In this document: in pieces, positions 5,710 through 34,742 of the stretch | Layout: each line of letters starts with the position of its first letter | Position numbering within the stretch: position 1 is the stretch's first letter | Virus record (IMG/VR): IMGVR_UViG_3300028422_002004 | Location: 1 to 36,903 of that record | Reading direction: 5' to 3' (one strand) | From: a virus | Taxonomy: Duplodnaviria; Caudoviricetes | Length of the DNA stretch: 36,903 nt | Notes under the pieces: generated by a model | Told to the model about the DNA's origin: nothing | The model's input: the letters and a program-made list of their open reading frames with translations, nothing else | The model's database searches: none | Program-made: the position numbers and the translations under genes

Positions 5710-6426
5710 ATGGAAAATAAAATGATCTATAAGGCAATCAGTGAAGTCATGGCTGACGTTGGGGCAGTAACAAAGTCAAAAAGAACACAGCAGGGTGACA
5801 AATATCTGTATCGTGGCATTGATGATGTCATGAATGCTTTGAACCCTGCAATGTCAAAACATGGAATATTTATCATTCCACATGTGACAGAAATCAGACG
5901 TGAAGAACGTACCACAAAAAATGGCGGTACTCTCATCACAAGTATGCTTACAATTGATTTTGAGTTCTTTGCAGAAGATGGATCCAGTGTAGTGGCTACT
6001 GTTATGGGTGAAGCATTTGACAGTGGAGATAAGTCCATTAATAAGGCAATGAGTATAGCATTTAAGTATGCGTGCTTCCAGGTATTCTGTATTCCTACTG
6101 AGGAAATGGAAGATCCAGATGCAACGGTACCTGACAATGTGAAGCCTAAACAGCAACAGGGTAATAAATCTGCACAGACGGAAGAAAAGCAGCAGGAAAA
6201 CCCACAGGATTCAGCCACTGAGCCAGAGGGTATTGATTTTGAGAAGATCAAAGATCAGAAGATCAATGAGATCAAAATAAATATCATTAAAGGCGAATTG
6301 GAACGTACAGGTGTAACAGAAGCTCAGATACTTCAAAGGTACAAAGTAGAGTGTTTTGAAGATATCACAGAGGAAATTTTCTTGAAGCTAGTAACTGCAT
6401 TTAAGAAAACTAAAGACAGAGGTTAA
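5710..6426 (+). CDS. ERF family single-strand annealing protein
   Basis: YRGIDDVMNALNP, GEAFDSGDKSINKAMSIAFKYA, EDPDA. Confidence 0.9.
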   Translation: MENKMIYKAISEVMADVGAVTKSKRTQQGDKYLYRGIDDVMNALNPAMSKHGIFIIPHVTEIRREERTTKNGGTLITSMLTIDFEFFAEDGSSVVATVMGEAFDSGDKSINKAMSIAFKYACFQVFCIPTEEMEDPDATVPDNVKPKQQQGNKSAQTEEKQQENPQDSATEPEGIDFEKIKDQKINEIKINIIKGELERTGVTEAQILQRYKVECFEDITEEIFLKLVTAFKKTKDRG

Positions 6427-8720: not shown

Positions 8721-8749
8721 AGGAAAGCAAATAAATCAGAGGTTGAGTT

Positions 8750-8917
8750 ATGAGAAAAGAAATGGATAGCACTCAAAAAGATCACCTTAAGAAGTCAAAT
8801 AATGACAGGCGATTAGGGAGCATGCAGGTAAGCAATAGTCAGAAAGCAAAAGAAGCATTTAACCGTAAACCATATTATCTGGAAGAACCGGAATGTTTTT
8901 CGGAATTAGATGATTAA
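8750..8917 (+). CDS. Hypothetical 55-aa protein (not in ORF track)
   Basis: GAGG RBS, MRKEMDSTQKDHLKK...FSELDD, stop TAA lies in the repeat site. Confidence 0.6.
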   Translation: MRKEMDSTQKDHLKKSNNDRRLGSMQVSNSQKAKEAFNRKPYYLEEPECFSELDD

Positions 8918-8929
8918 ATCGGAATTTAA
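8915..8929 (+). repeat. Junction site TAAATCGGAATTTAA
   Basis: Overlaps upstream stop, followed by RBS GGGGG. Confidence 0.6.
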
Positions 8930-8940
8930 AGGGGGATAAA

Positions 8941-9654
8941 GTGAAAGCATTTGACTATATTTGCGAAGGACAAATGAATTTGTTTGATTTTATAAATCAC
9001 CAGGTAACTTGCAAGATAGATAAATCTTTCCAGTGTAATCATGCCAACGCAAAGCAGGTAGCTTTATCGTGTGGCGAGAACTGTATATTCGATTGTTGCC
9101 TTACCTGTAAAGAAATGTGTGGATGTAGATGCAATCCTTCGGCTCATTTAAATAAACCTAAATTCTTAAAGAAAACTTGTGCTGCAACATTGAAAGAATG
9201 TGATTGCCATTGTGGAACGGATAGTGTTACTGATAAATGCTGTGGCAGTTGCATTGAAAAATGTGAACACAGATGTGAATATTCGATGGCCAGATATGAG
9301 GTGTTTGACAAACAAAAAAAAGAGTGGGTACAGAACCCAAATTATTACAATTACGTTTGGGATTTAATATCACATGGAACTGGATTTGTTGGTGGCATGG
9401 ATAGAGTAAGAAATTATTTCAAGCAATCTCACAAAACAGAAGAACGGATTTCTTTTCTAAAAAAAGAGTACGGAGAAGGTGGGTTTGGTATGCCACACGA
9501 TGGTGGGAAGAATTTAGTACATAGTTCATGGTCAGGAGCAAAAGGAATTAAAATTAATTATCTGGATGCGGAAGGAATTGACTATGAAGAATTAATTGAT
9601 TGGAAACGAATTGATAAAGAAATATTATTTTTAGTCGACAAAGGTTGGTATTGA
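8941..9654 (+). CDS. Cys-rich two-part hypothetical protein
   Basis: GTG start; about 20 Cys in the N-half; C-half HGTGFVGG...FLKKEYGEGG. Confidence 0.75.
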   Translation: MKAFDYICEGQMNLFDFINHQVTCKIDKSFQCNHANAKQVALSCGENCIFDCCLTCKEMCGCRCNPSAHLNKPKFLKKTCAATLKECDCHCGTDSVTDKCCGSCIEKCEHRCEYSMARYEVFDKQKKEWVQNPNYYNYVWDLISHGTGFVGGMDRVRNYFKQSHKTEERISFLKKEYGEGGFGMPHDGGKNLVHSSWSGAKGIKINYLDAEGIDYEELIDWKRIDKEILFLVDKGWY

Positions 9655-9667
9655 AAGGATAGGTAAA

Positions 9668-9934
9668 ATGAAAAACACATTAGGAGATTTAAATAATCAT
9701 CTTTTTGCACAGCTTGAAAAATTAAGTGATGATGATCTGACAGGGGATGGACTTGAAGCAGAAATAAAGAGAGCAGAATCAATGGCGAAAGTATCAGAGC
9801 AGATCATAAAAACAGGTGAGTTACAACTTAAAGCAATGGTTCATATGGATTCATATGGTTATGAACGTGAAAAACTTGTTCCAGAAATGCTGGAGGTAAA
9901 ATATGGGAAAGAGATACAGTCAGGAAGTAAATGA
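9668..9934 (+). CDS. Conserved phage protein (HNH partner)
   Basis: MKNTLGDLNNHLFAQLEKL...EIKRAESM; overlaps HNH start. Confidence 0.8.
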   Translation: MKNTLGDLNNHLFAQLEKLSDDDLTGDGLEAEIKRAESMAKVSEQIIKTGELQLKAMVHMDSYGYEREKLVPEMLEVKYGKEIQSGSK

Positions 9935-10676
9935 TTTTGTTCGTGACAATGTGACCAAATATAGCGCTCGTGAATTGGCAGAAGTTACGAATGAGAAGTT
10001 CGGTACCAGTTTCACGGATAGTTCCATGAAGTCATTTAAATCAAACCGAGGTCTTAAAGGTGTAAGGCAAAACACAACTGTATATTCAGATACCTTCCCA
10101 AAAGAAATTGCGATCTTTATCCAAAATAATTGTAATCAGGTCGGTTATCAGGCAATGGCAGATTTGCTAAAAGGAACTTTTGGAAGAAATTATACGAAAG
10201 AGCAGATTAAAGGATATTATCGCAATCATGGTTTAAGATCTGGGTTAGATGGCAGATTTAAAAAAGGTCATATTTCACCAACAAAAGGTAAAAAGGGATT
10301 GAGAATACCAGGCAGTGAAAAAGGATGGTTTAAGTCAGGTCACAGACCACATAATGCGGTCAAGGTTGGAACAGAAATAATTGATGATCATGGATACCAC
10401 AAAACAAAAATAGCAGAACCGGATGTTTGGATTTTCACACATAAACTTGTTTGGAAACAAAACTTCGGAGATATTCCAGCCGGTATGATGGTCAGTTTTA
10501 AGGATTGCAACAAAGATAATCTTTCACCTGATAACTTGATGCTTATAACCAATACTGAGCATATGGAATTGGTCAGACGTGGATTAAGATTCAGCAATCC
10601 TGAACATACAGAAATTGGATTGACAATTGCCAGAATGAACATAATAACAAAGAGACTGAAAAGAAAACAGAAATGA
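9903..10676 (+). CDS. HNH endonuclease family protein with duplicated N-terminal domain
   Basis: GRFKKGH-x2-P repeats; HKLVWKQNFGDIPAG...FKDCNKDN...DNL. Confidence 0.85.
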   Translation: MGKRYSQEVNDFVRDNVTKYSARELAEVTNEKFGTSFTDSSMKSFKSNRGLKGVRQNTTVYSDTFPKEIAIFIQNNCNQVGYQAMADLLKGTFGRNYTKEQIKGYYRNHGLRSGLDGRFKKGHISPTKGKKGLRIPGSEKGWFKSGHRPHNAVKVGTEIIDDHGYHKTKIAEPDVWIFTHKLVWKQNFGDIPAGMMVSFKDCNKDNLSPDNLMLITNTEHMELVRRGLRFSNPEHTEIGLTIARMNIITKRLKRKQK

Positions 10677-10754
10677 TAAAAATGGCAGCAGTCATGTCAC
10701 TATTAATATTGGGTTATTAATAGTGGCATAGAACAAAGTTCAGGAAGGGGATAT

Positions 10755-10979
10755 ATGGGAACTTTCGGTATCATGGAAAAAATGTCACTCGATAACAACA
10801 AGGAGTTAAAACTTAGTCCGTTAAGCAATATAAAGAGAGCACGATCTGGAAAAGATGGATGGGGAGAAGTAACAATTGCAATTCCAAATGAGATTGTTTT
10901 AGGTCTGTTGGAAAATCCAGAAAAATATATTGGTGGATTGATAATTTGCAATAAAGCTGAGTTTGAAAAGTACAAATAA
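10755..10979 (+). CDS. Hypothetical protein
   Basis: RBS GAAGGGG; co-oriented 74-aa ORF. Confidence 0.7.
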   Translation: MGTFGIMEKMSLDNNKELKLSPLSNIKRARSGKDGWGEVTIAIPNEIVLGLLENPEKYIGGLIICNKAEFEKYK

Positions 10980-11019
10980 AATTAAAAATTCAAAAAATGG
11001 CAGTAGGAAGGGGAATTAC

Positions 11020-11307
11020 ATGAAGTATTTGAAAATAGCAAGTGAAGATGGAGATAGAGCAGTATATAAGCATCACGATTTTTCAAGATTCTATCGCGGA
11101 GAATTTAAAGGAATTGAAGTTAAGTACCAAGGAATGAAAGTATATCAGTGTAAGACGTTAAAAAAGATTTTAGAAATCAGGCAGAGTACCTTTGATTACT
11201 GTGGAGAATGGTTTGATGTATATGATGAAAATGGAAAAGTAAATTTGGATAATCCAGAGATACAGCAGTTGATCAATAAAATAAAAGAATGCAGTTGTGA
11301 CAACTAA
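11020..11307 (+). CDS. Hypothetical protein
   Basis: ATG 11020 after GAAGGGG; stop lies in junction site. Confidence 0.7.
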   Translation: MKYLKIASEDGDRAVYKHHDFSRFYRGEFKGIEVKYQGMKVYQCKTLKKILEIRQSTFDYCGEWFDVYDENGKVNLDNPEIQQLINKIKECSCDN

Positions 11308-11319
11308 ATTAAAATTTAA
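11305..11319 (+). repeat. Junction site TAAATTAAAATTTAA
   Basis: Begins with the upstream stop; followed by RBS. Confidence 0.6.
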
Positions 11320-11340
11320 CGTGGGTGGGGGTAAAAATAT

Positions 11341-11541
11341 ATGTATGAAGTAGAAGCGAATAGCATGGGTTGTACGTTTGAAAAGGAAGAAGATGCAATA
11401 AATGCTTTTATGATGGCACTTGCAATGATAGAAGATATTAATATTTCAGAATTAGAAAAAAAAATAAAATTTGACATCAACAACACTAAAAATAATATGT
11501 ATGAGCATAATTACTATATGTCAATCAGAAAGGTAAACTGA
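11341..11541 (+). CDS. Hypothetical protein (single-gene cassette candidate)
   Basis: 66-aa ORF bracketed by two junction sites. Confidence 0.65.
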   Translation: MYEVEANSMGCTFEKEEDAINAFMMALAMIEDINISELEKKIKFDINNTKNNMYEHNYYMSIRKVN

Positions 11542-11548
11542 AATTTAA
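11534..11548 (+). repeat. Junction site TAAACTGAAATTTAA
   Basis: Contains the TGA stop; followed by RBS GAGGG. Confidence 0.6.
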
Positions 11549-11560
11549 TGAGGGAATGAA

Positions 11561-11746
11561 ATGAGAGAAGCGGTAAGTGAGTATATAGACTATTTAGAAA
11601 GAGTTGCAGCCTGTCAAAGAATAAGGTTTGAAGAAGCGGAAGAGTTAGCTGCATCAAAAGAAGTTGCAATGTACTATGGGTTAAATGATAAAGAGCTTAG
11701 TGAGGTTGAAGAATATGGCAGGAGAATGCAGACAGAAGCAAGCTGA
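11561..11746 (+). CDS. Hypothetical protein
   Basis: RBS GAGGG; 61 aa. Confidence 0.65.
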   Translation: MREAVSEYIDYLERVAACQRIRFEEAEELAASKEVAMYYGLNDKELSEVEEYGRRMQTEAS

Positions 11747-11984
11747 AAACAGAGAACTTGCATACAAGATGTATCTGGAAGGCAAAGACATAAATGAAAT
11801 AGCAAATCATATTGGTTATACGGTTCAGACGGTTAGGAATATTATAAATGATCGTGAAAGAGATCAAAGGCCTGTTCGTATAGAAGAACAGCATATTAAA
11901 TCAAAAGACGTAAGAAAAAGAGAAATTGTAATGATCGGAACTAAAAGATATATTGACGAAGTTGATTTTATTGCAGGTAGATAA
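11715..11984 (+). CDS. HTH DNA-binding protein
   Basis: AYKMYLEGKDINEIANHIGYTVQTVRNII; ATG 11715 after GAGG. Confidence 0.7.
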   Translation: MAGECRQKQAENRELAYKMYLEGKDINEIANHIGYTVQTVRNIINDRERDQRPVRIEEQHIKSKDVRKREIVMIGTKRYIDEVDFIAGR

Positions 11985-12054
11985 AATCAAAACAAAGACA
12001 ACAATTAATATGGATATTTCATAATAACAGTATCCAGGAAAGACAGGAGCCAGC

Positions 12055-13068
12055 ATGACAAAAGAGAAACTAATCAATAATATTTTGTTCAAAATGAATA
12101 TGCTCATAGATAAAGACCAAATGATCATGCTGGAGTCCGTCCTACAGAATGAACTATATAATGTCGATGTGACAGAAATGGAAACTGGTTTATCTACCGG
12201 GACTGATACAAATGAATATTTTATCCAGATGATGCTATTTAAAATGAATAAAAAACTATCTCCAAAGACGGTATACCAGTATGAAAGATGTATCAAGTCT
12301 TTCTGTGATTTTATTAATAAAAGTTTCGATAGAGTAAATTCAATGGATATTGAAGTATATCTTTCTAAATTTGCTGCCGGAAAAAATAAATCAAACAGTA
12401 ACAAGTCTTTGAATAATGAGCGCAGGTATCTATCTGCTTGTTTCAAATGGATGCGAAAGGCTAACCTTATTACAATAAATCCATGTGAAAATGTTGAACC
12501 ATTCAAAGAAATACAGAAGCCAATTGATCATTTGGTTGGTATAGAGGTTGAGCAGTTACGTGATTATTGTAAAACACTTAGGGAAAGAGACTTAGTAGAA
12601 TTTTTACTGTCAACAGCATGCAGAGTAGGAGAAGCAGAGAGAGTAAAGATATCTGATCTGGACATGCAAGTGAATAAAAATGTTTTACTTTACGGAAGTA
12701 AGGGCAGTGCATATAGATATGCTTGCCTGGGTGATGCGGCAAGATATCATATCAAAAAGTATCTTGATAGCAGGAATGATGATTCAGATGCACTATTTGT
12801 TACAGAAAGAGGCATAAAACATGGTGTTACAGCTGGAACAATGAGGGATATATTAAAAAGCATTAAAAAGCGTGCTGAAATTGGAAGAAGTATATACCCA
12901 CACTTGCTAAGAAAGACAAGTGCAACGGATCTTCGCAATCATGGTGCTGCCATAGAAGATATATCAGTAATGCTTGGGCATAAGGATGCATCTACAACGA
13001 TAAAATTTTATGCAGCGGTATCGCAGGAACATATATCGGCTGTTCATTCAAGATGTTCGTCATATTAA
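12055..13068 (+). CDS. Second tyrosine recombinase (XerC/D-like)
   Basis: STACRVGE, GSKG, YPHLLRKT, MLGH...TTIKFYA: intact R-K-H-R-H-Y set; SAM-like N-domain (LSPKTVYQY). Confidence 0.93.
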   Translation: MTKEKLINNILFKMNMLIDKDQMIMLESVLQNELYNVDVTEMETGLSTGTDTNEYFIQMMLFKMNKKLSPKTVYQYERCIKSFCDFINKSFDRVNSMDIEVYLSKFAAGKNKSNSNKSLNNERRYLSACFKWMRKANLITINPCENVEPFKEIQKPIDHLVGIEVEQLRDYCKTLRERDLVEFLLSTACRVGEAERVKISDLDMQVNKNVLLYGSKGSAYRYACLGDAARYHIKKYLDSRNDDSDALFVTERGIKHGVTAGTMRDILKSIKKRAEIGRSIYPHLLRKTSATDLRNHGAAIEDISVMLGHKDASTTIKFYAAVSQEHISAVHSRCSSY

Positions 13069-13165
13069 ATAAAAGTGTACAAAGATTTGTATATTAGTTC
13101 GTGTTTATTCGTTTTTAGAATGATATAATTATTTTACAAACAAATTTATGAAAGGAGTAGATCAA

Positions 13166-17470: not shown

Positions 17471-17791
17471 ATGACAATCGTAAATATTAAAAGAGAAACT
17501 GGTCATTACATGATGGATATTAATGGACATGCAGGTTATGCAGATCCAGGGATAGACATTGTATGTTCAGCTGTTTCCATATTGTCATATACATTTATTC
17601 AAACATTACAGAATTTAGAAGAGCAGGGAAAAATTTATATGTTCTATACAAATATTAAAGAAGGAAATGTGCAGATAGAATTTAGATACTCTGATAATAA
17701 TGTCCAAAGTGTTATTGATACCATAGAGAATGGTTATTCATTAATTGAAAACCAATATGGAGAATATGTAAGGGTAATAGGGGGGAAATAA
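17471..17791 (+). CDS. prp: Prp-family cysteine protease (phage maturation protease)
   Basis: GHAGYA...DIVCSAVS catalytic His/Cys motifs. Confidence 0.9.
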   Translation: MTIVNIKRETGHYMMDINGHAGYADPGIDIVCSAVSILSYTFIQTLQNLEEQGKIYMFYTNIKEGNVQIEFRYSDNNVQSVIDTIENGYSLIENQYGEYVRVIGGK

Positions 17792-23933: not shown

Positions 23934-26900
23934 ATGTCAGGTTCATTCAATAGATACCTCGAAGAACGTAAAAAAAGACAGCAGATGGAAGAAAGCGGTG
24001 CGAATAGTGGCACCGCTGTTTCTGATTCTGAAGAAAAAAGCAGCAGCAATTCCTTTAGCAGATATATGGAAGAACGAAATGCAAGAAAAACTACAGGAAG
24101 TCCTGTAAGAAAAATAGAAGTATCAGACAATAGTAGTACTGAAAAAACTGCTATGGATCTTGCGATTGAAAAAGTATTGAGCAGTAACCGTACGATGAAT
24201 TCAAAGCCAATGACTAATAGGAAAGAACCTGACAGTTACTTTGATCAGAACCGTCTTGAGCCAGAAGACAAAGAATATCTGTCTGTTGATACAACTAAAA
24301 ACGACAATCGCATAAGTGAAATTGACTCTGAATTAAAATATCTTTATCGTGACATGGATCATTTTCCACTTGAAAGAAAAGAGAACCAGGTCAAGATTGA
24401 TGCACTGAAAGATGAAAAGAATAATTTATCTGTTTCCAATACTAAAGCAAAAAGAGTACAGGCTATTGATAAATACAATAGTGTTAAGAACAAGAGTGAT
24501 TTTGGTCAAAATTCACGCTATATTGACAGCGGACAGAATATATATGGAAATGCTTATGAGTATATTAATGCTAGCAATAAAGAAAAAAATAGTTATAACG
24601 GTGTAGAAGAAAAAATCAGAAATGATATCAGTGTCGGACCGTACTCAAATGAAAATACATTTGCTGATAAAAGTTATGATTATTTAACTGATGATGAAAA
24701 ATCAGTATATAACTATATACATGCTACAGAAGGAAATGATAGTGCACAAAAATTCCTAGATACATTACAGAACACGTTAAACCAAAGACAAGCAGAAAAT
24801 ATCGCAGATGAAGCAGATACAAGATTAAAACAGCTTGCATATGCAAGAGTACAAGCAAAAATTGCAATGCAAGATACGGAAACAACTTTTTCTGGAGATA
24901 CCGAACTATCAGAGGAGAAATATGCTAGTCAACTTGTGAGAAATAAATTAGCAGATTTTGGTCCTGAATTTATGGGTAATAGCGCAGGACAAATAGCATA
25001 TGATCTAATAGGTACTACAGCTTATATGGCACCATCCATATTATTATCCAGTATCGTTGGTGCTGCAACGGGTGGGGCAGGTGCAGCATTAGTAGGTGCT
25101 GCTTCTATGGGTTCTTCAGCCGGTGGTAATGCCTATGCACAAAAAATCAATGAAGGATACACGGAAGACCAGGCAAAGAAATACGGAGTTCTAATAGGAG
25201 CATCAGAGGGAAGTTTACAGTATATTATCGGTGGTGTCGGTGCACTTGGTGGCAAGGTAACAAAAGGAGTTGCACAGCAGGCAATCAACAAGATCGATAA
25301 TGTAATGGCCAGAGTAGCAGTTGATGCAGGCACTAATATGCTCTCAGAAGGGTCGGAAGAGTATGTACAGGAAATTATTGAACCTGTTATTGCCAATGTT
25401 ACATTAGATGAAAATAATGATTTTAAACTGTTTACAGAGGATGCTCTGTATGCAGGTGTATTAGGTGCGCTTTCAGCAGGTGTACTTGAAAGTACTGGAA
25501 CTGTCAGTACCGGTATTGAAGACTCTAAAATGAAAAAAGTAGGTCAGTCTGTTGTAAGAAATGATGAAGTAGACTCTGTTATGGAACTTGCAAAATCACT
25601 GAATGATGAAGAGATCAAGAACATCCTCTCAAAATATGAAAAGACTAACAATGTAATCGATCTTGGAAAGCTTAAAACAGGAGTTGACCAGCTTGCAAAG
25701 CATAACACTGAAAATTCAGGTGTTACATCAGAAGAGAAACCTTTAGATCAAGAAAGTGTTACGCAATCATCTACGGAACAGGCTCGGCCAGAGAATGACA
25801 TTTTAAGACAACTTGCTAATGAAATGGCAGGAGTAACAACAACAGAACCAACTAGTTCATCCAAAATCAATAGCATTCTTTCAAGCAAAGAAAGTATTGA
25901 GAAGTTTGAAGCTGAATCAGGTATCAAACTGGAAGGAACAAAGGCAGAACAAAGGAATATAGTAAAAAATTATTATAAAACAGCACAAGAGACTAATCAA
26001 ACACAGAATATATCTACTGTGAAGGAAAGTAATAAAACGAGTGAGAATAGTCCTTTAATGCAGCCTCAGCAGGCTACTATCAGCAATCTGGCAGGCATTG
26101 AAGCACTATCCGACAATGATGCGATTGTTAAGCTTAAAAACGGTACTAAGGTCAACCTTTCAGAAATACAATTTAGCAACCTTACAGAAAAAGCAGTTTA
26201 TCGAATGGCATCAGTGGCAAATACGACTGAAGAAGCTAATACATATATTAATAGTTATCCAGAAGGTATGCCGATTGAAACATATACGAGACTGTTCAAC
26301 ACATTAAAACGTGCTGGATATAATGAGCAGAACCCTATTAATGTGATAAAAGACAACAATGCATATCTTCAGTATATGTCAGCTGATACCATGAAATCGA
26401 TTTATGATATTGGTGTTAATGAAGCATCTGCAGTCAGCGCAAAGGCAGTATCAGACAAGCAGATATCTCTTGTTAACAATATTGCAAAAGCCTTTGGAGT
26501 ACAGGTAGAGTTTTCAGACTCAATTCATGATGAAGCTGGTAATGGTGCAAACGGTGTGTACCAGGATGGAAAGATTATTATTTCAAAAAAATCATTGGAT
26601 CCGGCACTTGTTGTATTTTCTCATGAAATGACACACTCACTTAAAAATTCAGCACCTGAAGCATATAAAACATATTCAGATCATGTAATCAACTATATGA
26701 AAGAAAGCCATTTGGATACTTATAATAGTATAACCAAAAGACTTTCTGATTTGTATGCAAATGATTCAGAGGAATATATTAATGATGAAATTGTAGCAAA
26801 TGCTACTGAAACATTTCTCACAGATGCTGAAGCGATAAAATCACTTGTAAAAAAAGATAGATCAGTTGCAGAGAAGATTCTTGATGCAATCAATAATATG

Positions 26901-29900
26901 ATAAGCAAAATTAAATCTCTTTATAAAAATTATGAACCGAAGAGCAAAGAGGCGCAGGCACTTGCTGAAAACGAGGAAGTGCTGAGCAAAGCAAGAGAAC
27001 TGTGGCTTTCAGCTGTAAATGAGAATATAAATGAAGTAAAAGAAAATAGTGAAAATAAATTCTCAAAAAAAGACAGCAAGGGGAAAATGTTAACAGATGC
27101 GCAGGCAGAATTCTTCAAAGATTCCAAAGTAGTAGATGATGAAGGAAATCTTCTTAATGTTTATCATGGAACCGGTAACACATTTTATGTATTTGATTCA
27201 AATAAGACCGGTCTCGGAAATGATCAGTTTGGGTCTGGATTCTATTTCACAACAGATGAAGAGGAAGCAAATAATTACCAGTCAGCGTTTCAACGTGGAA
27301 AAGAGAAAATTGGTGGAACGGACAGTCCAAGAATAATAGAGGCATATCTTAATATTAAGAAGCCGCTTATTGTTGACGGAATGAGCCTAAATGATGCTGA
27401 TATCAATATAAGTAAATCACAGGCATATAGGATCATGAAAATGGCACCTGATATCTACAATTATGAAGACAGCGCAATTGGTTCATTTCACGATGTATGG
27501 GCAAATGAAAAAGTAGAAGAATGGATGATTAAGGATGCGGCTTCATCATACACTGGTGCAAGTCTTATTTCTCTTGAAAACGATTTCTTTAGAGGTAAAG
27601 CAACCGCATTTAGAAAGGCAGTGAATGAAGTTCTTGGGTATGATGGGGTAATTCATGAGTTTGAAGACGGTAAAAAGCATTTTGTTGCATGGTTTAGCAA
27701 CCAGATAAAAGATGTAGAGAATGAAAATCCTACTACTAATATGGATATCAGGTATTCATTAAAAGGTGTAGATCAGGACGGTATTGAAATATACGAAACG
27801 AGTAATGATACCAAATCTCTTACATGGAAAGAACGCAAAGCAGCTCTTTTGAATTCAATCGTTAATGAATATGTGGGAAGGACTGCAAAGTTCATAAAAG
27901 ATGGAAAAGTATTCTACGCTAAAATGAATGAAGCAGATATTAGAAAGAGTATATTTGGAGATAATAAATCAAGTAGAAGAGGATATAATGCAAAAATTAA
28001 TATTGGCGCAGATGGAAACTACTTTGAATTAATTGAAAATGCCGAAATTACTGGAAGCAGAGAAGAAAAAGGCAAGACAACACTTAATGGAATTCATGAA
28101 GGCACAAAATCATGGTATTACTTTGAAAAAACAATAAAGGCAGATGAAGATTATTTTAACGTATTAATAAATGTATATGATAAAGGAGAAGATCAATATG
28201 TTTATTCGGTTAATTTATTTGAATCAAAAAAAGGACTCCCAAGCAGCCGAAGCTTTAACCAAGGGAATCCTTCTGATAATATTATAGATCAACCTACTAT
28301 AAATGTCAATAAATCAGACATTCGCCATTCATTAAAAGATGAGGATTTCCTGTTTACTGATGAATTTTTTGATACAAGTGCTGCACCTGATGTAACAAAA
28401 ATAATCAACGAGTCCGAAAGCATTTTGGAAGAGGGTATGAAAGCGTTAAAACATACAAATGTTGATGAAAAAAGAGTACGCAGCATTGCCAGAAAGATTC
28501 TTAATGACTATAAGAGCGAATACAAAAAAGCAGATTTTGAAGAAAATATGATTAAAGTATTTGCTTATATGCAGACCGCAGATAGGGTTGACTATAAAGA
28601 CATGATCCGGCTCATGTCAGAAATTGCAACTCCGGCCATTGAAAGAAGCGGTCAATATGATGAATCAATGATGAGGCAGTACACTGATTTCAAGAATAGT
28701 ATAAACACATATAACATCAGACTTAATAAAGAACAAAGATCAGAGGTTGAAAGTCTTTTCGATAGTTACACTAATTTTAAGAAGAGTGTAAAAGGAGAAC
28801 TTAAACTCTCAGAAAACGGTACCTGGCTTGACAATATTTGGAATGAAATTACTGAAAAATCAGCAGGGATGTTAGATGTAGATGAGCCAGTCGGAAATCA
28901 ACCGATAGCACTTGCTGAAGCGTTACATGCACTTAAACCCAGTATGACCAATAGTTATGGTATGGATAATACAATGCTTGCTTATGATATGGCATTAAAT
29001 ATTTACAAAGAGTATTTTTCAGCACAGAGTAGCACTGAAATTAACAAAGCAAAGCAGCAGATGGCACAGCAAATTATCCAGGTGCGGAAAGACAGCATTG
29101 CAAGGTTTGAAAAAAGGATTCAAGAAATTAAAGATGCTGAGCAGAAGAAAGCTGAACTTAAAATATCAAAACTTGAAGGGGAAATCGCAAATCTGAAAGA
29201 ACAAAGAAAAATTGGAGATGCACTGAATAGGGATAAAAGAAATTCTGCTGTTGAAAATGAAGTGAACAAAAGAAAAGAACAGATCCGATTATTAAAGGAA
29301 GCTGAAAAGGCTAAAAAGATTGAGGCTATCAATAAGGAAATAGCAGTCAAAGAACAAAGAATAAAATCACTTCGTGAGGAAAAGAACAAAAGGATCCTTA
29401 CACTTCAGGCACAGTACCGAGAAAGCAAATTGGTTCTGAGAGAAAAAAGTAAGCGCAAGGCACAAGATCGTAAATATAAGAATAGAATTATTGACAATGG
29501 CAGGGAAATTATAAAATGGATTGAAAAACCAACTGATAAACACCATGTGCCAGAACCATTAAAGCAGACCACTCTTGAATTCCTTACAAGCATTGATTTC
29601 ATATCGAGCAAAGCACAACCAGATAGCAAGTCAACACAGGGTTGGAATGATAAAATGCAGGCATTGTATTCTAAACTGGACGAAATACAAAGAAAAGAAG
29701 ATGGAGAATACAATAATTTTGCTTTGACATTTGATCCAGACTTTATGCCAGCCTTTATAGAATTTATGAATGGCAATAAAAACATAAAAAAGGTTTCTGA
29801 TCTGACTGGTGAACAACTAAAAGAGTTAGATTACCTTATGTCAGTGTTGAAAAATACCATAACTTCTGTCAATAAAATGTATAACAATAAGCGGTATGAA

Positions 29901-32591
29901 GAAGTGGCGCAGGTCGGAGAAAATACGATTGCAGAGCTTGAAGAAAAGAAAACCAAACAGAAGAAAAATGCAGGAATTGAAGCAATCAGTAATTTGTTAA
30001 ATGTGCATATGCTAGATTCGTTTTCATATTTTCATCAGATCGGAGATGCAGCAGAAAGTATTTATGAGGAATTACGAGAAGGTTTTAATCAAAGAACCTG
30101 GAAGATAAAAGAAGCACAGGACTTTATGGCTGAAACAATCCAAGGTTTAAATATAAAAGACTGGACCGGAAACAATGCAAAAGTATTTGATTTTACAATA
30201 AAAGGAAAGGATCTTAGAATGACCACTGGTCAGATCATGTCCCTTTATATGTTATCAAGTAGAAAGCAGGCAGTAGCGCATATAAAAATAGGTGGTATAA
30301 AGGCAGGGGATATTGATACAAAAACCGTAAAATATCGCCAGTCTAAAGCAGTTCATCCAGATGATGCGGCACTTAGCTTAATCTTCTCAAAGCTCACAAA
30401 TGAACAAAAAGAAGTTGCGGAAAAGATGCAGTCATTTATGGCAAGCAATTGTTCAGAGTGGGGTAATGAAGTATCGATGAAAATGTGGGGATACAAAAAA
30501 TATACAGAGGATAATTATTTCCCAATCAAGTCAGATGATAATATCATACCTACAAATGATAATAATGCAACGCAGGCGGCAATTTATGCGCTGGTAAATC
30601 TTGGGTTTACTAAATCAACACAGACAGGTGCCAACAATGCAATCACGGTAGGGGATATATTTGATATCTTTACTGAACATGTAACTAATATGGCAACCTA
30701 CAATGCATTTGCAATACCAGTCATAGATTCCATGAAATGGTACAATTATAAAACGGATGAATTTATTGATGATGGAACAAGAGAAAAAAATAAGATCACT
30801 GTAAAAGGAGAAATAGACCGTGCTTATGGAAGTAAGGCAAAAGATTATTTTATTAATTTGATCCGGGATATTAATGGTGAAATAGAACGCAAAGACGGTG
30901 GAGAAATAGGTAAAAGGCTGTTATCAAATTATAAAGCAGCAGCGGTAGGTGCTAATTTACGAGTAGCAATTCAGCAGCCCACATCATATGCAAGAGCATT
31001 AGCTGTTATGAATCCCAAATATATTACAGGGGCAATGTTTAAGCTTGCAAATGTAAAAAAAGCAAAAGAAAACAGCGCAATAGCACTCTGGAAATCATGG
31101 GGATATTATGAAACCATGATTGGAAAATCAATGAAGGATGTTATTACCGGACAGGAAAGTTTTCATGACAAAATAAAGGATGCTTCTATGTCACTTGCAC
31201 AGCAAGCAGATAATCTTACATTTGGTACATTATGGAATGCATGTGAATTAGAAATAGCTGACAAAAATCCTGATATTGATAAAAAGAGTGATGAATTTTT
31301 AAAGCTTGTTACAGCACGGTTTGATGAGGTTATTGATCGCACCCAGGTGGTTGATACAGTCCTTCATAAATCACAAATTATGAGGTCAAAATCTTCATTG
31401 GCACAACTTGAAACTACTTTTATGTCAGAACCGATAAAAAGCTATAATATGTTGCACGGTGCGTTTGTGGATGCGATTGAAACCAAAAGTGCAGCATCAT
31501 ATGCTGATCTAACAAGAAAGACAACGGTGTATGTTTTAACCGCAACAATTACAGCGGCAGCAGCTTCGATTTTGGATGCATTAAGAGATGATGACGAAAA
31601 TGAGAAGTTTATCGAAAAATATCTTGATGCATTAAAAGGCAATGTGATCGGAAATATAAACCCTATGAACATGATACCATTATTAAAAGATTTAATTTCA
31701 GCAGCAGATGCTGTTATGAATAAAAGTTATTTTAGTAGTGGCAGAATGGATATAGACGGATTTAAAAACCTTTTTACAGGTCTTTCACAGCTATTAAAAA
31801 TGGTATCAGATCCAACGTATGAAAAGACACCATATGGAATAATTAAATCAGTAGCAAAAGGAGCATCACAACTAACGGGTATTCCTGCCTATAATTTTAT
31901 TCGTGATGCAGAAGCTGTTTATAATTCTATAACTGGAAATCAGCTTGGTGGTGAAGAACGTGACAAGTATGAAAAAATGTTTGATGCCATAAAAGATGGA
32001 AATTTAGAAGCTTACAATAAGCTTTACGCTGCAGTTATTGAAAGCGGTGTCAAAGAAGAAACTATTAGTAATGGTATTAAAAATCAGCTTGTTGAAAATG
32101 ATCCTCGTATAGCAGATGCGGCAGATGCTAGGGTGAAAGGTAAAACTGACAACTACTTAAAAATCATGAATCAAATTGTAGCGGATGGGTTTAATAAAGA
32201 CATAGTAAAAGCAGCTATCAATAAAAAAATAAATGACATTTCAAAATCCGCAAATACTGATGAAAAGAAAGTATCAGAAGCAGATGGTTCATTAACAGAT
32301 GCAGTAAGTGAATATGAAATGAAAGATATTTATTACTCTTTGGATGCTGGAAATACTAAAGAAGCTCAGAAGATTATTAATGACATCTACAATGTGAAAT
32401 TAAAAAATGGTGTTGAAAAGACTGATGCAAAGTCAAGTATAAAAAGTGGATTAACTGGTAAATACAAAGAGCTGTATATAACTGGTTCATCTATGGAAAG
32501 ACTTGAAATTAAAGAAATGCTAATGAACATCTACATTGACGGAAAAAGGTTGTATTCACAGGATAATTTTACAAAATGGAATAACAGTTAA
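23934..32591 (+). CDS. Giant polyvalent/ejection protein (zincin-like, ADP-ribosyltransferase-like and putative nuclease modules)
   Basis: 2885 aa; Gly/Ala hydrophobic stretch; HEMTH at 26622-26636; YHGT...GSGFYFT...YLNIKKP...GYDGV ART-like module. Confidence 0.82.
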   Translation: MSGSFNRYLEERKKRQQMEESGANSGTAVSDSEEKSSSNSFSRYMEERNARKTTGSPVRKIEVSDNSSTEKTAMDLAIEKVLSSNRTMNSKPMTNRKEPDSYFDQNRLEPEDKEYLSVDTTKNDNRISEIDSELKYLYRDMDHFPLERKENQVKIDALKDEKNNLSVSNTKAKRVQAIDKYNSVKNKSDFGQNSRYIDSGQNIYGNAYEYINASNKEKNSYNGVEEKIRNDISVGPYSNENTFADKSYDYLTDDEKSVYNYIHATEGNDSAQKFLDTLQNTLNQRQAENIADEADTRLKQLAYARVQAKIAMQDTETTFSGDTELSEEKYASQLVRNKLADFGPEFMGNSAGQIAYDLIGTTAYMAPSILLSSIVGAATGGAGAALVGAASMGSSAGGNAYAQKINEGYTEDQAKKYGVLIGASEGSLQYIIGGVGALGGKVTKGVAQQAINKIDNVMARVAVDAGTNMLSEGSEEYVQEIIEPVIANVTLDENNDFKLFTEDALYAGVLGALSAGVLESTGTVSTGIEDSKMKKVGQSVVRNDEVDSVMELAKSLNDEEIKNILSKYEKTNNVIDLGKLKTGVDQLAKHNTENSGVTSEEKPLDQESVTQSSTEQARPENDILRQLANEMAGVTTTEPTSSSKINSILSSKESIEKFEAESGIKLEGTKAEQRNIVKNYYKTAQETNQTQNISTVKESNKTSENSPLMQPQQATISNLAGIEALSDNDAIVKLKNGTKVNLSEIQFSNLTEKAVYRMASVANTTEEANTYINSYPEGMPIETYTRLFNTLKRAGYNEQNPINVIKDNNAYLQYMSADTMKSIYDIGVNEASAVSAKAVSDKQISLVNNIAKAFGVQVEFSDSIHDEAGNGANGVYQDGKIIISKKSLDPALVVFSHEMTHSLKNSAPEAYKTYSDHVINYMKESHLDTYNSITKRLSDLYANDSEEYINDEIVANATETFLTDAEAIKSLVKKDRSVAEKILDAINNMISKIKSLYKNYEPKSKEAQALAENEEVLSKARELWLSAVNENINEVKENSENKFSKKDSKGKMLTDAQAEFFKDSKVVDDEGNLLNVYHGTGNTFYVFDSNKTGLGNDQFGSGFYFTTDEEEANNYQSAFQRGKEKIGGTDSPRIIEAYLNIKKPLIVDGMSLNDADINISKSQAYRIMKMAPDIYNYEDSAIGSFHDVWANEKVEEWMIKDAASSYTGASLISLENDFFRGKATAFRKAVNEVLGYDGVIHEFEDGKKHFVAWFSNQIKDVENENPTTNMDIRYSLKGVDQDGIEIYETSNDTKSLTWKERKAALLNSIVNEYVGRTAKFIKDGKVFYAKMNEADIRKSIFGDNKSSRRGYNAKINIGADGNYFELIENAEITGSREEKGKTTLNGIHEGTKSWYYFEKTIKADEDYFNVLINVYDKGEDQYVYSVNLFESKKGLPSSRSFNQGNPSDNIIDQPTINVNKSDIRHSLKDEDFLFTDEFFDTSAAPDVTKIINESESILEEGMKALKHTNVDEKRVRSIARKILNDYKSEYKKADFEENMIKVFAYMQTADRVDYKDMIRLMSEIATPAIERSGQYDESMMRQYTDFKNSINTYNIRLNKEQRSEVESLFDSYTNFKKSVKGELKLSENGTWLDNIWNEITEKSAGMLDVDEPVGNQPIALAEALHALKPSMTNSYGMDNTMLAYDMALNIYKEYFSAQSSTEINKAKQQMAQQIIQVRKDSIARFEKRIQEIKDAEQKKAELKISKLEGEIANLKEQRKIGDALNRDKRNSAVENEVNKRKEQIRLLKEAEKAKKIEAINKEIAVKEQRIKSLREEKNKRILTLQAQYRESKLVLREKSKRKAQDRKYKNRIIDNGREIIKWIEKPTDKHHVPEPLKQTTLEFLTSIDFISSKAQPDSKSTQGWNDKMQALYSKLDEIQRKEDGEYNNFALTFDPDFMPAFIEFMNGNKNIKKVSDLTGEQLKELDYLMSVLKNTITSVNKMYNNKRYEEVAQVGENTIAELEEKKTKQKKNAGIEAISNLLNVHMLDSFSYFHQIGDAAESIYEELREGFNQRTWKIKEAQDFMAETIQGLNIKDWTGNNAKVFDFTIKGKDLRMTTGQIMSLYMLSSRKQAVAHIKIGGIKAGDIDTKTVKYRQSKAVHPDDAALSLIFSKLTNEQKEVAEKMQSFMASNCSEWGNEVSMKMWGYKKYTEDNYFPIKSDDNIIPTNDNNATQAAIYALVNLGFTKSTQTGANNAITVGDIFDIFTEHVTNMATYNAFAIPVIDSMKWYNYKTDEFIDDGTREKNKITVKGEIDRAYGSKAKDYFINLIRDINGEIERKDGGEIGKRLLSNYKAAAVGANLRVAIQQPTSYARALAVMNPKYITGAMFKLANVKKAKENSAIALWKSWGYYETMIGKSMKDVITGQESFHDKIKDASMSLAQQADNLTFGTLWNACELEIADKNPDIDKKSDEFLKLVTARFDEVIDRTQVVDTVLHKSQIMRSKSSLAQLETTFMSEPIKSYNMLHGAFVDAIETKSAASYADLTRKTTVYVLTATITAAAASILDALRDDDENEKFIEKYLDALKGNVIGNINPMNMIPLLKDLISAADAVMNKSYFSSGRMDIDGFKNLFTGLSQLLKMVSDPTYEKTPYGIIKSVAKGASQLTGIPAYNFIRDAEAVYNSITGNQLGGEERDKYEKMFDAIKDGNLEAYNKLYAAVIESGVKEETISNGIKNQLVENDPRIADAADARVKGKTDNYLKIMNQIVADGFNKDIVKAAINKKINDISKSANTDEKKVSEADGSLTDAVSEYEMKDIYYSLDAGNTKEAQKIINDIYNVKLKNGVEKTDAKSSIKSGLTGKYKELYITGSSMERLEIKEMLMNIYIDGKRLYSQDNFTKWNNS
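28226..28309 (-). ncRNA. Intragenic antisense promoter plus ~50-nt hairpin sRNA
   Basis: TTGACA(28309-28304)-17-TATAAT(28286-28281); stem AAGGAUUCCC/GGGAGUCCUU, cUUCGg loop, U tract. Confidence 0.65.
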
Positions 32592-33802: not shown

Positions 33803-34402
33803 ATGAGTTATACAAAAGTAGTATGGAAAGATTATCCATCAACAGCAACACCGATCAATGCTGCAAATCTTGGAATTATGGACCAGGGTATTGCAGATGC
33901 TCATTCATTGTTAGCAACAGCGCAGGCAGATCTTGATGTTGCAGAAGCAAATATTATTTCATTAGGAACACAGGTGGCGGCAAAGATACCAACAGCAAAT
34001 ATCATGCAGTCATTAGATGATATGGAAGCACTATCTACGGCAGGTGTATATGTGGCAGATGCAAAAGCGGTAGGGGCAATAAGCACTAATTTAAATGGGG
34101 TTACTGCAAATTTATATGAATTAGACTTTGCCGATAAAATTGATTTAAAAACAGCACTTGATGCAGTTGGGAAAACATATACTTTTCAAACAAACGGTGT
34201 TTTATGTTACAAATTTACAAGCGCTGCCGCCGCAAATGCTTATAGGTTAAATTCTTCGACTGGCGTTCCTATTTTATTCGCACAAGCAGGCGGTGCTTCT
34301 TACGAACTCGCTGGTAGAGTTCATGTGTCTAAGGGTGAAATTGGAACTGTAGCATATTTTGGTATAACTATAAATAGTTTGTATTTTGTTCCTTTTAAAT
34401 AA
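33803..34402 (+). CDS. Tail fibre/receptor-binding protein, constant N-part + variable tip A
   Basis: YTKVVWKDYPSTATPINAANL anchor motif, coiled coil, STNLN crossover, beta-rich tip. Confidence 0.78.
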   Translation: MSYTKVVWKDYPSTATPINAANLGIMDQGIADAHSLLATAQADLDVAEANIISLGTQVAAKIPTANIMQSLDDMEALSTAGVYVADAKAVGAISTNLNGVTANLYELDFADKIDLKTALDAVGKTYTFQTNGVLCYKFTSAAAANAYRLNSSTGVPILFAQAGGASYELAGRVHVSKGEIGTVAYFGITINSLYFVPFK

Positions 34403-34742
34403 TTTTATGTGCTTTATCTATAAAAAACAGATAATGTTACAGTTGATGTTCTGTCTATACCATCAACGTAGACAAACACACAATTAGCAGAAGCGTTGGT
34501 AACGCTAATTTTACATGCGCAAGTAGTACCAACGCCACTATCATATCCGTCACGAATATCTTTTGCAGTTGAACTTAATGCAATTTTAGGTACATGGAAA
34601 GTAAATGTTCCACCCGCTGTAGTACCGCATAGTATAATTAACTCAGTATATTCGCTAGGTAATGTGACCGCTGTCGAGCCACTCACAGTGGTAATTGCCT
34701 TCCATGTCAAATCTGCTTCGATTGCATTTAAATTAGTGTTTA
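34080..34742. mobile_element. Invertible DNA segment bounded by inverted repeats
   Basis: TAAGCACTAATTTAAATG (34080-34097, +) and TAAACACTAATTTAAATG (34742-34725, -); 14-bp exact core. Confidence 0.82.
34414..34737 (-). CDS. Silent alternative tail-fibre tip B (partial CDS, expressed after inversion)
   Basis: Reads TNLNAIEADLTWKAITT...VFYR*, in the same frame across the repeat as tip A. Confidence 0.78.
   Translation of the reverse strand, partial: TNLNAIEADLTWKAITTVSGSTAVTLPSEYTELIILCGTTAGGTFTFHVPKIALSSTAKDIRDGYDSGVGTTCACKISVTNASANCVFVYVDGIDRTSTVTLSVFYR

Follow-up and report, generated by a model that had tools for sequence, protein, structure and literature searches.

Integrons carry small promoterless genes between direct sites with a tyrosine recombinase adjoining (PMC8138268, PMC9771954). 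In Acinetobacter plasmids, pdif modules consist of cargo genes that lie between short double-stranded sites, each with two arms and a spacer; the sites are inversely oriented, and the modules are thought to be shuffled by the Xer-type enzymes of the host, XerC/D (PMC9771954). The Rin shufflon of bifidobacterial prophages includes a phage-encoded, arm-less XerD-like tyrosine recombinase predicted to invert the C-termini of receptor-binding proteins at short in-gene crossover sites; as outlined in that report, Rin lies beside its shufflon and its site, rix, is an asymmetric 11-mer, TTCCCTAACCC (PMC6109161). PeSL cassettes of T4-type phages are repeated intergenic elements, made up of a promoter and terminator hairpins, where accessory genes are gained, lost, or replaced; the abstract names no recombinase (PMC2839356). 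Precise gene-boundary exchange in temperate phages is an old open question, for which the usual account is illegitimate or homology-driven recombination plus selection; the "linker" and homeologous recombination models of mosaic boundaries have modules exchanged at short conserved flanks (PMC2327257).

The window analyzed here is the whole 36,903-nt stretch of a Caudoviricetes prophage (IMG/VR record IMGVR_UViG_3300028422_002004). It carries copies of a 14-bp core, TAAA-N6-TTTA (spacer Y...R), that sit on stop codon/RBS junctions where relatives exchange neighboring genes, and inverted equal-spacer copies that bracket alternative fiber tips. Judging from sequence comparisons, this core marks the points of gene swapping and fiber-tip switching in Lachnospiraceae temperate phages and is probably the crossover site of a phage-borne clade of XerA-like recombinases that includes the enzyme encoded from position 12055. 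The features concerned are as follows.

5710 to 6426, plus strand: Erf-family single-strand annealing protein (protein-domain annotation), the enzyme of a rival microhomology model.
8732 to 8745, plus strand: degenerate fourth junction site, TAAA TCAGAG GTTG, 5′ of a 55-aa ORF; it lies at a gene junction and matches the consensus at 12 of 14 positions, a weak call, 12/14 matches also being found within genes.
8915 to 8928, plus strand: junction site 1, TAAA TCGGAA TTTA, the left arm being the stop codon of the 55-aa ORF (exact match; contig of run X8).
8941 to 11307, plus strand: five accessory ORFs (237, 88, 257 [HNH], 74, and 95 aa) in the interval from site 1 to site 2, which do not form one unit (ORF annotation; a relative skipping 8941 to 9667).
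11305 to 11318, plus strand: junction site 2, TAAA TTAAAA TTTA (exact match; loose end at 11312 in run X3).
11341 to 11541, plus strand: 66-aa ORF, the only gene of the module bounded by sites 2 and 3 (separate contig of run X3).
11534 to 11547, plus strand: junction site 3, TAAA CTGAAA TTTA (exact match; its spacer is the commonest in related phages).
12055 to 13068, plus strand: second tyrosine recombinase, XerA-like, with SAM_4 core-binding and catalytic domains and without the IntI insertion (domain and profile searches, tree).
33803 to 34402, plus strand: predicted tail fiber/receptor-binding gene, constant N terminus plus current tip (PHROG minor tail protein, E value 7e−8).
34080 to 34093, plus strand: tail site A, TAAG CACTAA TTTA, in frame within the fiber gene (one-mismatch match; contig of run X3).
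34417 to 34728, minus strand: silent alternative fiber tip that follows tail site B in an open, in-phase reading frame and bears no relation to the current tip (sequence analysis).
34729 to 34742, minus strand: tail site B, TAAA CACTAA TTTA, in the opposite orientation to site A, with an equal spacer (exact match).

The direct sites, small promoterless genes, and adjoining tyrosine recombinase recall integrons, but no IntI-specific insertion, folded attC, attI, or cassette promoter was found here, nor were circles seen in contigs; the integron was rejected on the IntI and attC features. Like the Rin shufflon as outlined in its report, the prophage combines a phage-encoded tyrosine recombinase with short in-gene sites and predicted switching of a receptor-binding tip. 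Unlike Rin, its enzyme lies in the early region, 21 kb from the tail switch, its sites have symmetric arms around 6 bp, and the tail-type site also marks accessory-gene junctions; no invertase gene adjoins the switch. Cargo genes between short two-arm spacer sites and a proposed Xer-type enzyme are shared with pdif modules as these are described, whereas the sites here are direct, 14 bp long, fused to a stop codon and RBS, and carried by phages with a single phage-borne candidate enzyme, so that the locus does not conform to inversely oriented XerC/XerD plasmid sites. The likeness to PeSL cassettes lies in repeated intergenic elements at points of accessory-gene turnover, but the 14-bp sites have neither the strong promoter nor the terminator stem-loop of a PeSL. 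Compared with the linker models, what is conserved is a symmetric arm pair around a variable but matched spacer, which suggests protein recognition rather than plain homology. The locus is best read as spacer-matched module exchange between phages together with fiber-tip switching, not as an integron. A full-text literature search, with most subscription journals outside it, returned no paper dealing with a TAAA-N6-TTTA site or with accessory-gene exchange driven by a recombinase in such phages, which is weak evidence of novelty.

The first-pass annotation had described a quasi-palindrome repeated in direct orientation at gene junctions and shared with inverted repeats in the tail region, and these observations were borne out. 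Exact matches to TAAAYNNNAATTTAA occur at 8915, 11305, and 11534 on the plus strand and at 34728 to 34742 on the minus strand, and 34080 matches with one mismatch; in shuffled sequences, 0.12 exact copies were expected and four copies were reached in 0/100 shuffles. Across the 3.05-Mb whole genome there were eight exact matches, four inside the prophage and the remaining four among host genes. The TAAAYNNNAATTTAA pattern was drawn post hoc from these very copies, and the independent support therefore comes from other phages. In the array, every copy overlaps a stop codon (TAA at 8915 to 8917, TAA at 11305 to 11307, and TGA at 11539 to 11541) and is followed by a purine-rich RBS. From site to site, the longer interval (2,390 bp) has five ORFs and the shorter (229 bp) the 66-aa ORF alone; after the last site, two further ORFs, one of 61 aa and one coding for an HTH protein of ∼90 to 99 aa, precede the recombinase. 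The tail sites share the spacer CACTAA, which differs from those of the array, and the three array spacers differ from each other at 2 to 3 bases. A second junction word, GGCAGCAG, was mostly intragenic, and no prophage att repeat of >13 bp was found.

When 763 junctions near clade recombinases were searched de novo, the top gapped pair was TAAA-N6-TTTA (31 observed versus 2.4 expected). Matches at ≥12/14 positions were present at 82/763 of these junctions and at 12/568 junctions of phage control loci that lack the clade enzyme; these controls were not host-matched. A spacing scan gave 71 matches at 6 bp against 9 to 30 at spacings of 3 to 5 and 7 to 10 bp, and the symmetric arms were kept over 25 different spacers. 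The strict motif occurred 48 times in 71 clade loci (5 in the null), with a strict junction site in 34 of the 71 in this larger set and in only two of the nine unselected clade loci drawn from 400 family genomes. Sites were oriented with transcription, and 44/62 strict sites had a stop codon at offset 2 or 7. Co-occurrence with the recombinase, a check suggested at first pass, shows as a roughly fivefold enrichment at junctions near the clade gene, but the link is not one to one: among 25 site-bearing phage records picked for having no nearby enzyme, 12 of them ≥90% complete, none had the clade gene elsewhere, and no clade gene was found in the whole of genome G320, which has a four-site array. 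Identical spacers were not rarer within one phage (4/24) than between phages (79/1,461), giving no sign of purging by deletion. The 400 family genomes held only two short matches to the accessory DNA, and a strict motif-plus-GGAG pattern run over them gave 13 matches against ∼10 in a reversed control, which says little on co-occurrence; one of these matches sits 1 kb from a clade gene. In a terminase-selected phage set, most members had a higher GC content, and sites were few.

Whether gene gain and loss breakpoints fall on the motif was a check proposed by the first-pass annotation: 23/1,510 alignment breakpoints lay on it, compared with 0.6 for random positions. Motif junctions were broken in 11/11 cases (22/22 comparisons) and other junctions in 55/87 (104/152; Fisher P = 0.014), so that 104 of the 126 broken comparisons, i.e., most swaps, were at junctions without a strict site. 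As is usual for tyrosine recombinases, the informative crossovers kept the 6-bp spacer and changed one arm. Where the left gene was shared, 11/24 comparisons remained identical through the left arm and spacer and ended at offsets 10 to 13, partner right arms including CTGA, AATA, TATC, TATT, and TTAT; five of the 24 broke upstream of the core and four inside the left arm or spacer. Where the right gene was shared, the spacer was kept with partner left arms GAGA, TCAT, ACAA, GAAT, and AAAA, and 13/30 were out of register or diverged at or after the right arm. These comparisons are of related, nonindependent pairs, and both sets take in motif-seeded loci. With inverted arms, a fixed 6-bp spacer shared by the partners, and crossovers at the spacer edges apart from a minority of comparisons that break elsewhere, the sequences have the properties expected of a tyrosine recombinase site.

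Source contigs of the prophage also varied at the sites. One contig of run X8 joins another upstream gene exactly at 8915. In run X3, the 66-aa module forms a separate contig (11339 to 11536) at depth 40, versus ∼4 in neighboring contigs, and there are loose ends at 11312 and 11539. Two loose ends of this run look like sites whose spacer is 5 bp. A relative without the 237-aa gene skips 8941 to 9667, with the break falling 3′ of the RBS; hence, the five-gene interval is not one cassette. Neither a circle joint in the contigs of four runs, which drop rare forms, nor an inversion joint in the prophage's source contigs was detected.

In the tail region, the inverted crossover sites lie in frame between the constant part of the fiber and its alternative tips, and a contig of run X3 is identical over 33990 to 34094 and then continues into a third, unrelated tip. 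No recombinase was found near 34 kb or at the equivalent position in ten related records. Of 15 records with the early-region enzyme, seven repeat the layout of the window, with inverted equal-spacer pairs in frame in predicted tail-region genes and no invertase beside them, and such a pair was present in 10/40 stretches versus 0 to 1 in nulls. An initial result of no tail pairs in early-enzyme phages, obtained with a narrow tail pattern, was overturned by a spacer-free search. Two further records, L038 and L039, carry one tail locus in both orientations, with the crossover in a 14-bp TAAA TAATAA TTTA that has no flanking homology. This inversion adjoins a nested member of the recombinase clade: the enzymes of L038, L039, L217, L221, and L225 form a group within the accessory-region clade, both nodes having a support of 1.0. 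In one subclade, GTTA arms covaried between tail and array (4/8 versus 3/54 sites); this rests on one downstream gene and was not counted as evidence.

The enzyme itself was, as annotated at first pass, intact, retaining R190, K216, H283, R286, H309, and Y319. The clade profile aligned to XerA and XerD without an IntI-specific insertion in the catalytic domain; its best PDB match was XerA (E value, 3e−38), IntI4 matching over just 64 residues (E value, 4e−12), and TIGR02249 scored 71 bits against a cutoff of 265. Single-protein scans of IMG/VR with the recombinase and the 66-aa protein as queries found no relatives, and a metagenome scan gave only distant homologues, which were excluded from every count. 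A related enzyme and array were found in phiCs5676-1 of Clostridium scindens, a culturable host.

Based on these comparisons, the recombinase would bind the two arms, cut where the 6-bp spacer begins and ends, and join sites with matching spacers. At the inverted equal-spacer tail sites, a tip could be flipped or a new tip accepted. Where direct sites differ in their spacers, deletion within a single phage would be resisted. Such sites would recombine with sites of matching spacer in another phage, co-resident or superinfecting, an exchange that would swap the downstream content and leave the stop codon and RBS intact. The enzyme may also act in trans on phages that have sites but not the gene. 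It is likely that one virus-encoded recombinase serves both the gene swaps and the tail switch. The first-pass interpretation was partly supported: the comparisons bear out a breakpoint of recombination whose overlap is 6 bp, arms common to the tail-fiber switch sites of the same clade, and spacers that differ between tail and array, but they do not support integron-like cassette capture and excision.

It is unlikely that the junctions are merely passive stop-to-RBS linkers that supply microhomology to the phage Erf or to host recombination, the likeness of the tail sites then reflecting AT-richness and L-N-x-N-L codons. The prophage does encode Erf, sites are present without the recombinase, ordinary junctions are often broken as well (the 55/87 above), and module exchange via short conserved flanks has been described, with RecET recombination at 5 to 13 bp occurring at 1e−8 (PMC2327257). 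However, microhomology predicts neither the fixed 6-bp spacing nor symmetric arms over 25 different spacers, and products with the spacer kept and one arm changed, like the same arms at the 14-bp inversion beside a nested clade member, would be unexpected. Somewhat less probable is that the sites are recombinase targets but that the 12055 gene is tail-only or a passenger, the array being served by another enzyme of the host or another element. Complete phages G106, G109, and G110, which have arrays and tail pairs with an integrase as sole recombinase, agree with this, as do the many clade loci without strict sites; against it are the junction enrichment near the clade gene and the arms common to both site classes. 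The clade gene was present in just 9/400 family genomes, and no core host recombinase candidate was identified in these 400 genomes, five candidates being scored per genome.

A true integron analogue, in which single genes are excised as circles, captured at a preferred site, and built into an ordered array, is less likely still. Single promoterless genes do lie between direct sites, here (66 aa) and elsewhere, and in phiCs5676-1 one small gene has two copies within a series of degenerate sites next to the clade-like recombinase. Yet, besides the missing IntI insertion, the three sites gave folding z scores of −1.74 to 0.29 on both strands with at most a 6-bp AT-rich stem, promoter-like matches were at chance level (22 versus 25), no distinct primary site type was seen, the spacers around the 66-aa gene differ at two of six positions, and arrays occur on either side of the recombinase gene. 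Stoperators offer a parallel for a regulatory role. It is very improbable, though, that the copies at junctions serve as operators or in antitermination or RNA processing, with no part in recombination: their orientation with transcription and their overlap with stop codons would fit, but base-precise exchange at spacer edges and in-frame inverted tail copies would be left unexplained, folding z scores lie between −1.7 and 0.3, and neither a promoter nor a terminator was seen at the sites.

Returning to spacer-matched exchange by the phage-borne recombinase, we tentatively suggest, with rather less confidence than for the site and enzyme themselves, that Lachnospiraceae temperate phages may share a population-wide, address-coded form of gene exchange. 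One recombinase family, working in cis or, as a public good, in trans, would use a 14-bp site built from the stop codon before an RBS, with the 6-bp spacer as the address: receptor-binding tips would be flipped and imported in the tail, and accessory genes swapped between phages in the early region. If true, this would be a natural form of recombinase-mediated cassette exchange and a driver of phage mosaicism; one enzyme doing both jobs would give the mosaicism of phage genomes a targeted mechanism. Were some of the boundaries to have a site and enzyme of their own, precise gene-boundary exchange would become directly testable, and a compact recombinase would be available whose 6-bp spacer variants are natural and possibly orthogonal. 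For the phages themselves, it would couple host-range switching to the turnover of accessory genes.

The window is a temperate prophage, close to complete, from contig C51 of a genome of 3.05 Mb, and named relatives of its recombinase, mostly from Lachnospiraceae, point to that family as the probable host. The prophage carries the following features:

331–1374, integrase
early part of the prophage, repressor region, Erf, SSB and replication protein
8.5 to 12 kb, small accessory genes
12055–13068, second tyrosine recombinase
packaging and structural genes, terminase, P22-like portal, capsid and 2885-aa virion protein
33803–34402, predicted fibre gene
listed after the predicted fibre gene, holin and lysin

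The 2885-aa virion-region protein (23934–32591) has an ART-PolyVal ADP-ribosyltransferase domain at residues 1068–1267 and is likely an injected polyvalent protein targeting the bacterial host. The head module encodes a Prp-family cysteine protease (17471–17791), and a cysteine-rich 237-aa accessory protein without a Pfam match (8941–9654) is missing from one relative.

The first-pass annotation proposed a candidate integron-like cassette array sharing its site, and perhaps its recombinase, with the tail-fibre switch. Against an expected 0.12 matches in the window, its pattern was found at 8915, 11305 and 11534 and once more, in inverted orientation, at 34728, with a one-mismatch copy at 34080, which upheld both the three direct copies and the fit of the tail repeats to the consensus; of eight exact matches in the whole genome, half lay within the prophage. 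All three array copies share bases with a stop codon, and an RBS follows each of them, as also reported. Tail site A (34080, + strand) is in frame within the fibre and encodes ISTNLN; tail site B (34728–34742, − strand) is likewise in frame, with an unrelated open tip behind it on the other strand. A 12/14 match to the 14-bp core TAAA-N6-TTTA (two 4-base arms around a 6-bp spacer) overlaps the recombinase's own stop codon (13066–13079, TAAA TAAAAG TGTA) and may be due to chance; the sequence of a relative departs close by, at 13071. The 74-aa ORF lies between copies of another imperfect direct repeat, AAAAATGGCAGYAG (10659–10691 and 10974–11006), and contigs of relatives stop or diverge within its copies at 10679–10680 and 10980; it is possibly a second linker class.

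The motif is real and general among relatives. Loci were gathered using four seeds (recombinase, motif, 88-aa gene and terminase), and the 283 obtained without motif seeding were dereplicated to 219. When 763 junctions close to enzymes of the XerA-like clade that includes the 12055 recombinase were searched de novo, TAAA-N6-TTTA was the best gapped pair and second overall (31 versus 2.4 expected). Matches of at least 12/14 occurred at 82/763 clade-enzyme junctions versus 12/568 control junctions, the controls being phage loci without a clade gene and not host-matched. Across 71 clade loci, a 6-bp spacing gave 71 hits versus 9 to 30 at other spacings, and 48 copies of the strict motif, against 5 in the null, were spread over 34 loci. 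At 41 junction sites chosen on the four-base arms alone, the first spacer base was a pyrimidine in 95% and the last a purine in 98%; 55 sites carried 25 distinct spacers.

The first-pass annotation asked whether breakpoints of gene gain and loss fall on the motif: 23 of 1,510 distinct alignment ends lay on it, versus 0.6 at random positions. Gene boundaries are where phage mosaics break in any case, so motif junctions were compared with other junctions, and 11/11 were broken (22/22 comparisons) versus 55/87 (104/152; P = 0.014). On this comparison, a motif junction is almost sure to be a breakpoint, yet such junctions make up a minority of all swaps. Combination across the core was free, with four right partners for one left gene and five left partners for one right gene.

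Where the left gene was shared (24 comparisons), divergence started at offsets 10–13 in 11, 14–16 in 4, 1–7 in 4 and upstream in 5; the right arms that partners carried behind an unaltered left arm and spacer included CTGA, AATA, TATC and TATT. Of 30 comparisons with a common right gene, 10 had the entire core in common, 5 differed in the left arm alone, 2 broke in the spacer, and the other 13 departed at the right arm or later or were out of register. Differing left arms were ACAA, GAGA and TCAT, and GAAT and AAAA were further left arms with the spacer retained. These patterns, from related pairs and with motif-seeded loci in both sets, suggest that the spacer moves with either neighbour, each arm staying with its own side. 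A staggered 6-bp exchange by a tyrosine recombinase leaves this arrangement. The recombinase would recognise the two arms, cleave at the spacer edges and need matching spacers, and would work across phages as well as in trans. Two unlike spacers stand in tandem in composite sites at L020:2037 and about 930 bp ahead of the recombinase in locus L027; these sites look like scars left by a secondary-site exchange.

In sequencing runs X1 and X2, possibly the source, the prophage lay in one contig and no inversion or circle joints were seen. Run X3 contributed a contig of depth 3 that was identical over 33990–34094 before entering a third tip; in that run the 66-aa gene formed a separate contig of depth 40, whose loose ends fell within the sites on either side, at 11312 and 11539, and read as 5-bp spacers. 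In run X8, a different gene was joined at 8915 and the same contig skipped the 237-aa gene, breaking after the RBS; a relative without the 8915 site was present in runs X7 and X8. These contigs show that the five-gene interval is not a single cassette. As the three array spacers differ by 2–3 bases, simple excision is unlikely in the window unless mismatches are tolerated.

Next to recombinases of the family, an unbiased inverted-repeat search brought up many chance pairs and, among them, TAAATAATAATTTA, TAAATAGTAATTTA, TAAATAGTGATTTG and TAAGTAGGGATTTG. Loci L038 and L039 present one tail locus in two opposite orientations, with the junction inside the 14-bp site. In a FastTree phylogeny (114 proteins, midpoint root), the tail-adjacent enzymes of L038, L039, L217, L221 and L225 formed one group nested in the accessory-region clade that includes the 12055 recombinase (support of 1.0 at both nodes). 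A survey of 40 stretches from 23 phage records identified inverted equal-spacer pairs, in frame within predicted tail-region genes, in 10 stretches (0–1 in eight nulls), covering 7/15 records with an early-region clade enzyme (about four lineages, some records covered in part) and 3/8 without (one lineage). No recombinase was found near these pairs in 77 scanned of 94 neighbouring ORFs, nor a local invertase in whole-record searches, and the clade gene was the only tyrosine recombinase found in G130, G135 and G137, so the window's layout recurs in other phages. Extra equal-spacer sites 3–4 kb past the fibre switch, beyond holin and lysin, in L514 and L540 (G135 and G142) suggest larger invertible or exchangeable segments. 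In phage TPELB_ph1 (L544:4493 and 7213), a distant family member (29%) lies within a tail inverted repeat whose core, TAGCTAACCCT, is closer to the Rin rix site of PMC6109161 than to TAAA-N6-TTTA.

Sites also occur away from the enzyme. None of 25 site-bearing records picked for no nearby enzyme (12 at least 90% complete) carried a clade gene elsewhere, nor was one found in G320, which has a four-site array; a strict junction site stood at 2/9 clade loci from 400 family genomes. Degenerate sites escape the strict pattern, as in phiCs5676-1, which has one strict site, while most of the junctions behind its enzyme bear degenerate ones, and one small gene is present twice. In its small-gene run after the recombinase (L503:37173–39082), CS5676_0063 and CS5676_0066 are near-identical at start and end. 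Tail pairs are retained in phages without the enzyme, which is compatible with supply in trans. The predicted co-occurrence of motif and recombinase was seen as junction enrichment but not record by record, which argues against a strict cis partnership.

The 12055 recombinase retains R190, K216, H283, R286, H309 and Y319, in agreement with its description as intact, and XerA was its nearest solved structure. It lacks the IntI insertion, as defined in PMC8138268, and its site is not of integron type either; integrons were rejected, and integron-like circles are very unlikely. The system also differs from PeSL in promoter and hairpin (PMC2839356). The tail end works like the Rin shufflon (PMC6109161) and the array like pdif modules (PMC9771954); in the literature covered, with most subscription journals outside its scope, dual use of one motif at gene junctions and a tail switch was not found described.

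A microhomology linker is an unlikely reading. Service by another enzyme is quite improbable, and a regulatory site is hardly credible. From the comparisons made here, we consider it reasonably probable that TAAA-N6-TTTA is the point of both gene swapping and fibre-tip switching, and likely the crossover site of the clade enzyme. Of the proposal that one recombinase may both capture or excise genes and flip the fibre, the integron-like part fell; the crossovers, the L038/L039 orientations and the nested clade point to a probable two-use site-specific recombination system with 12055 as candidate enzyme, in which swapping at an equal-spacer site of a second phage fits the combinatorial gene pattern better than excision does.
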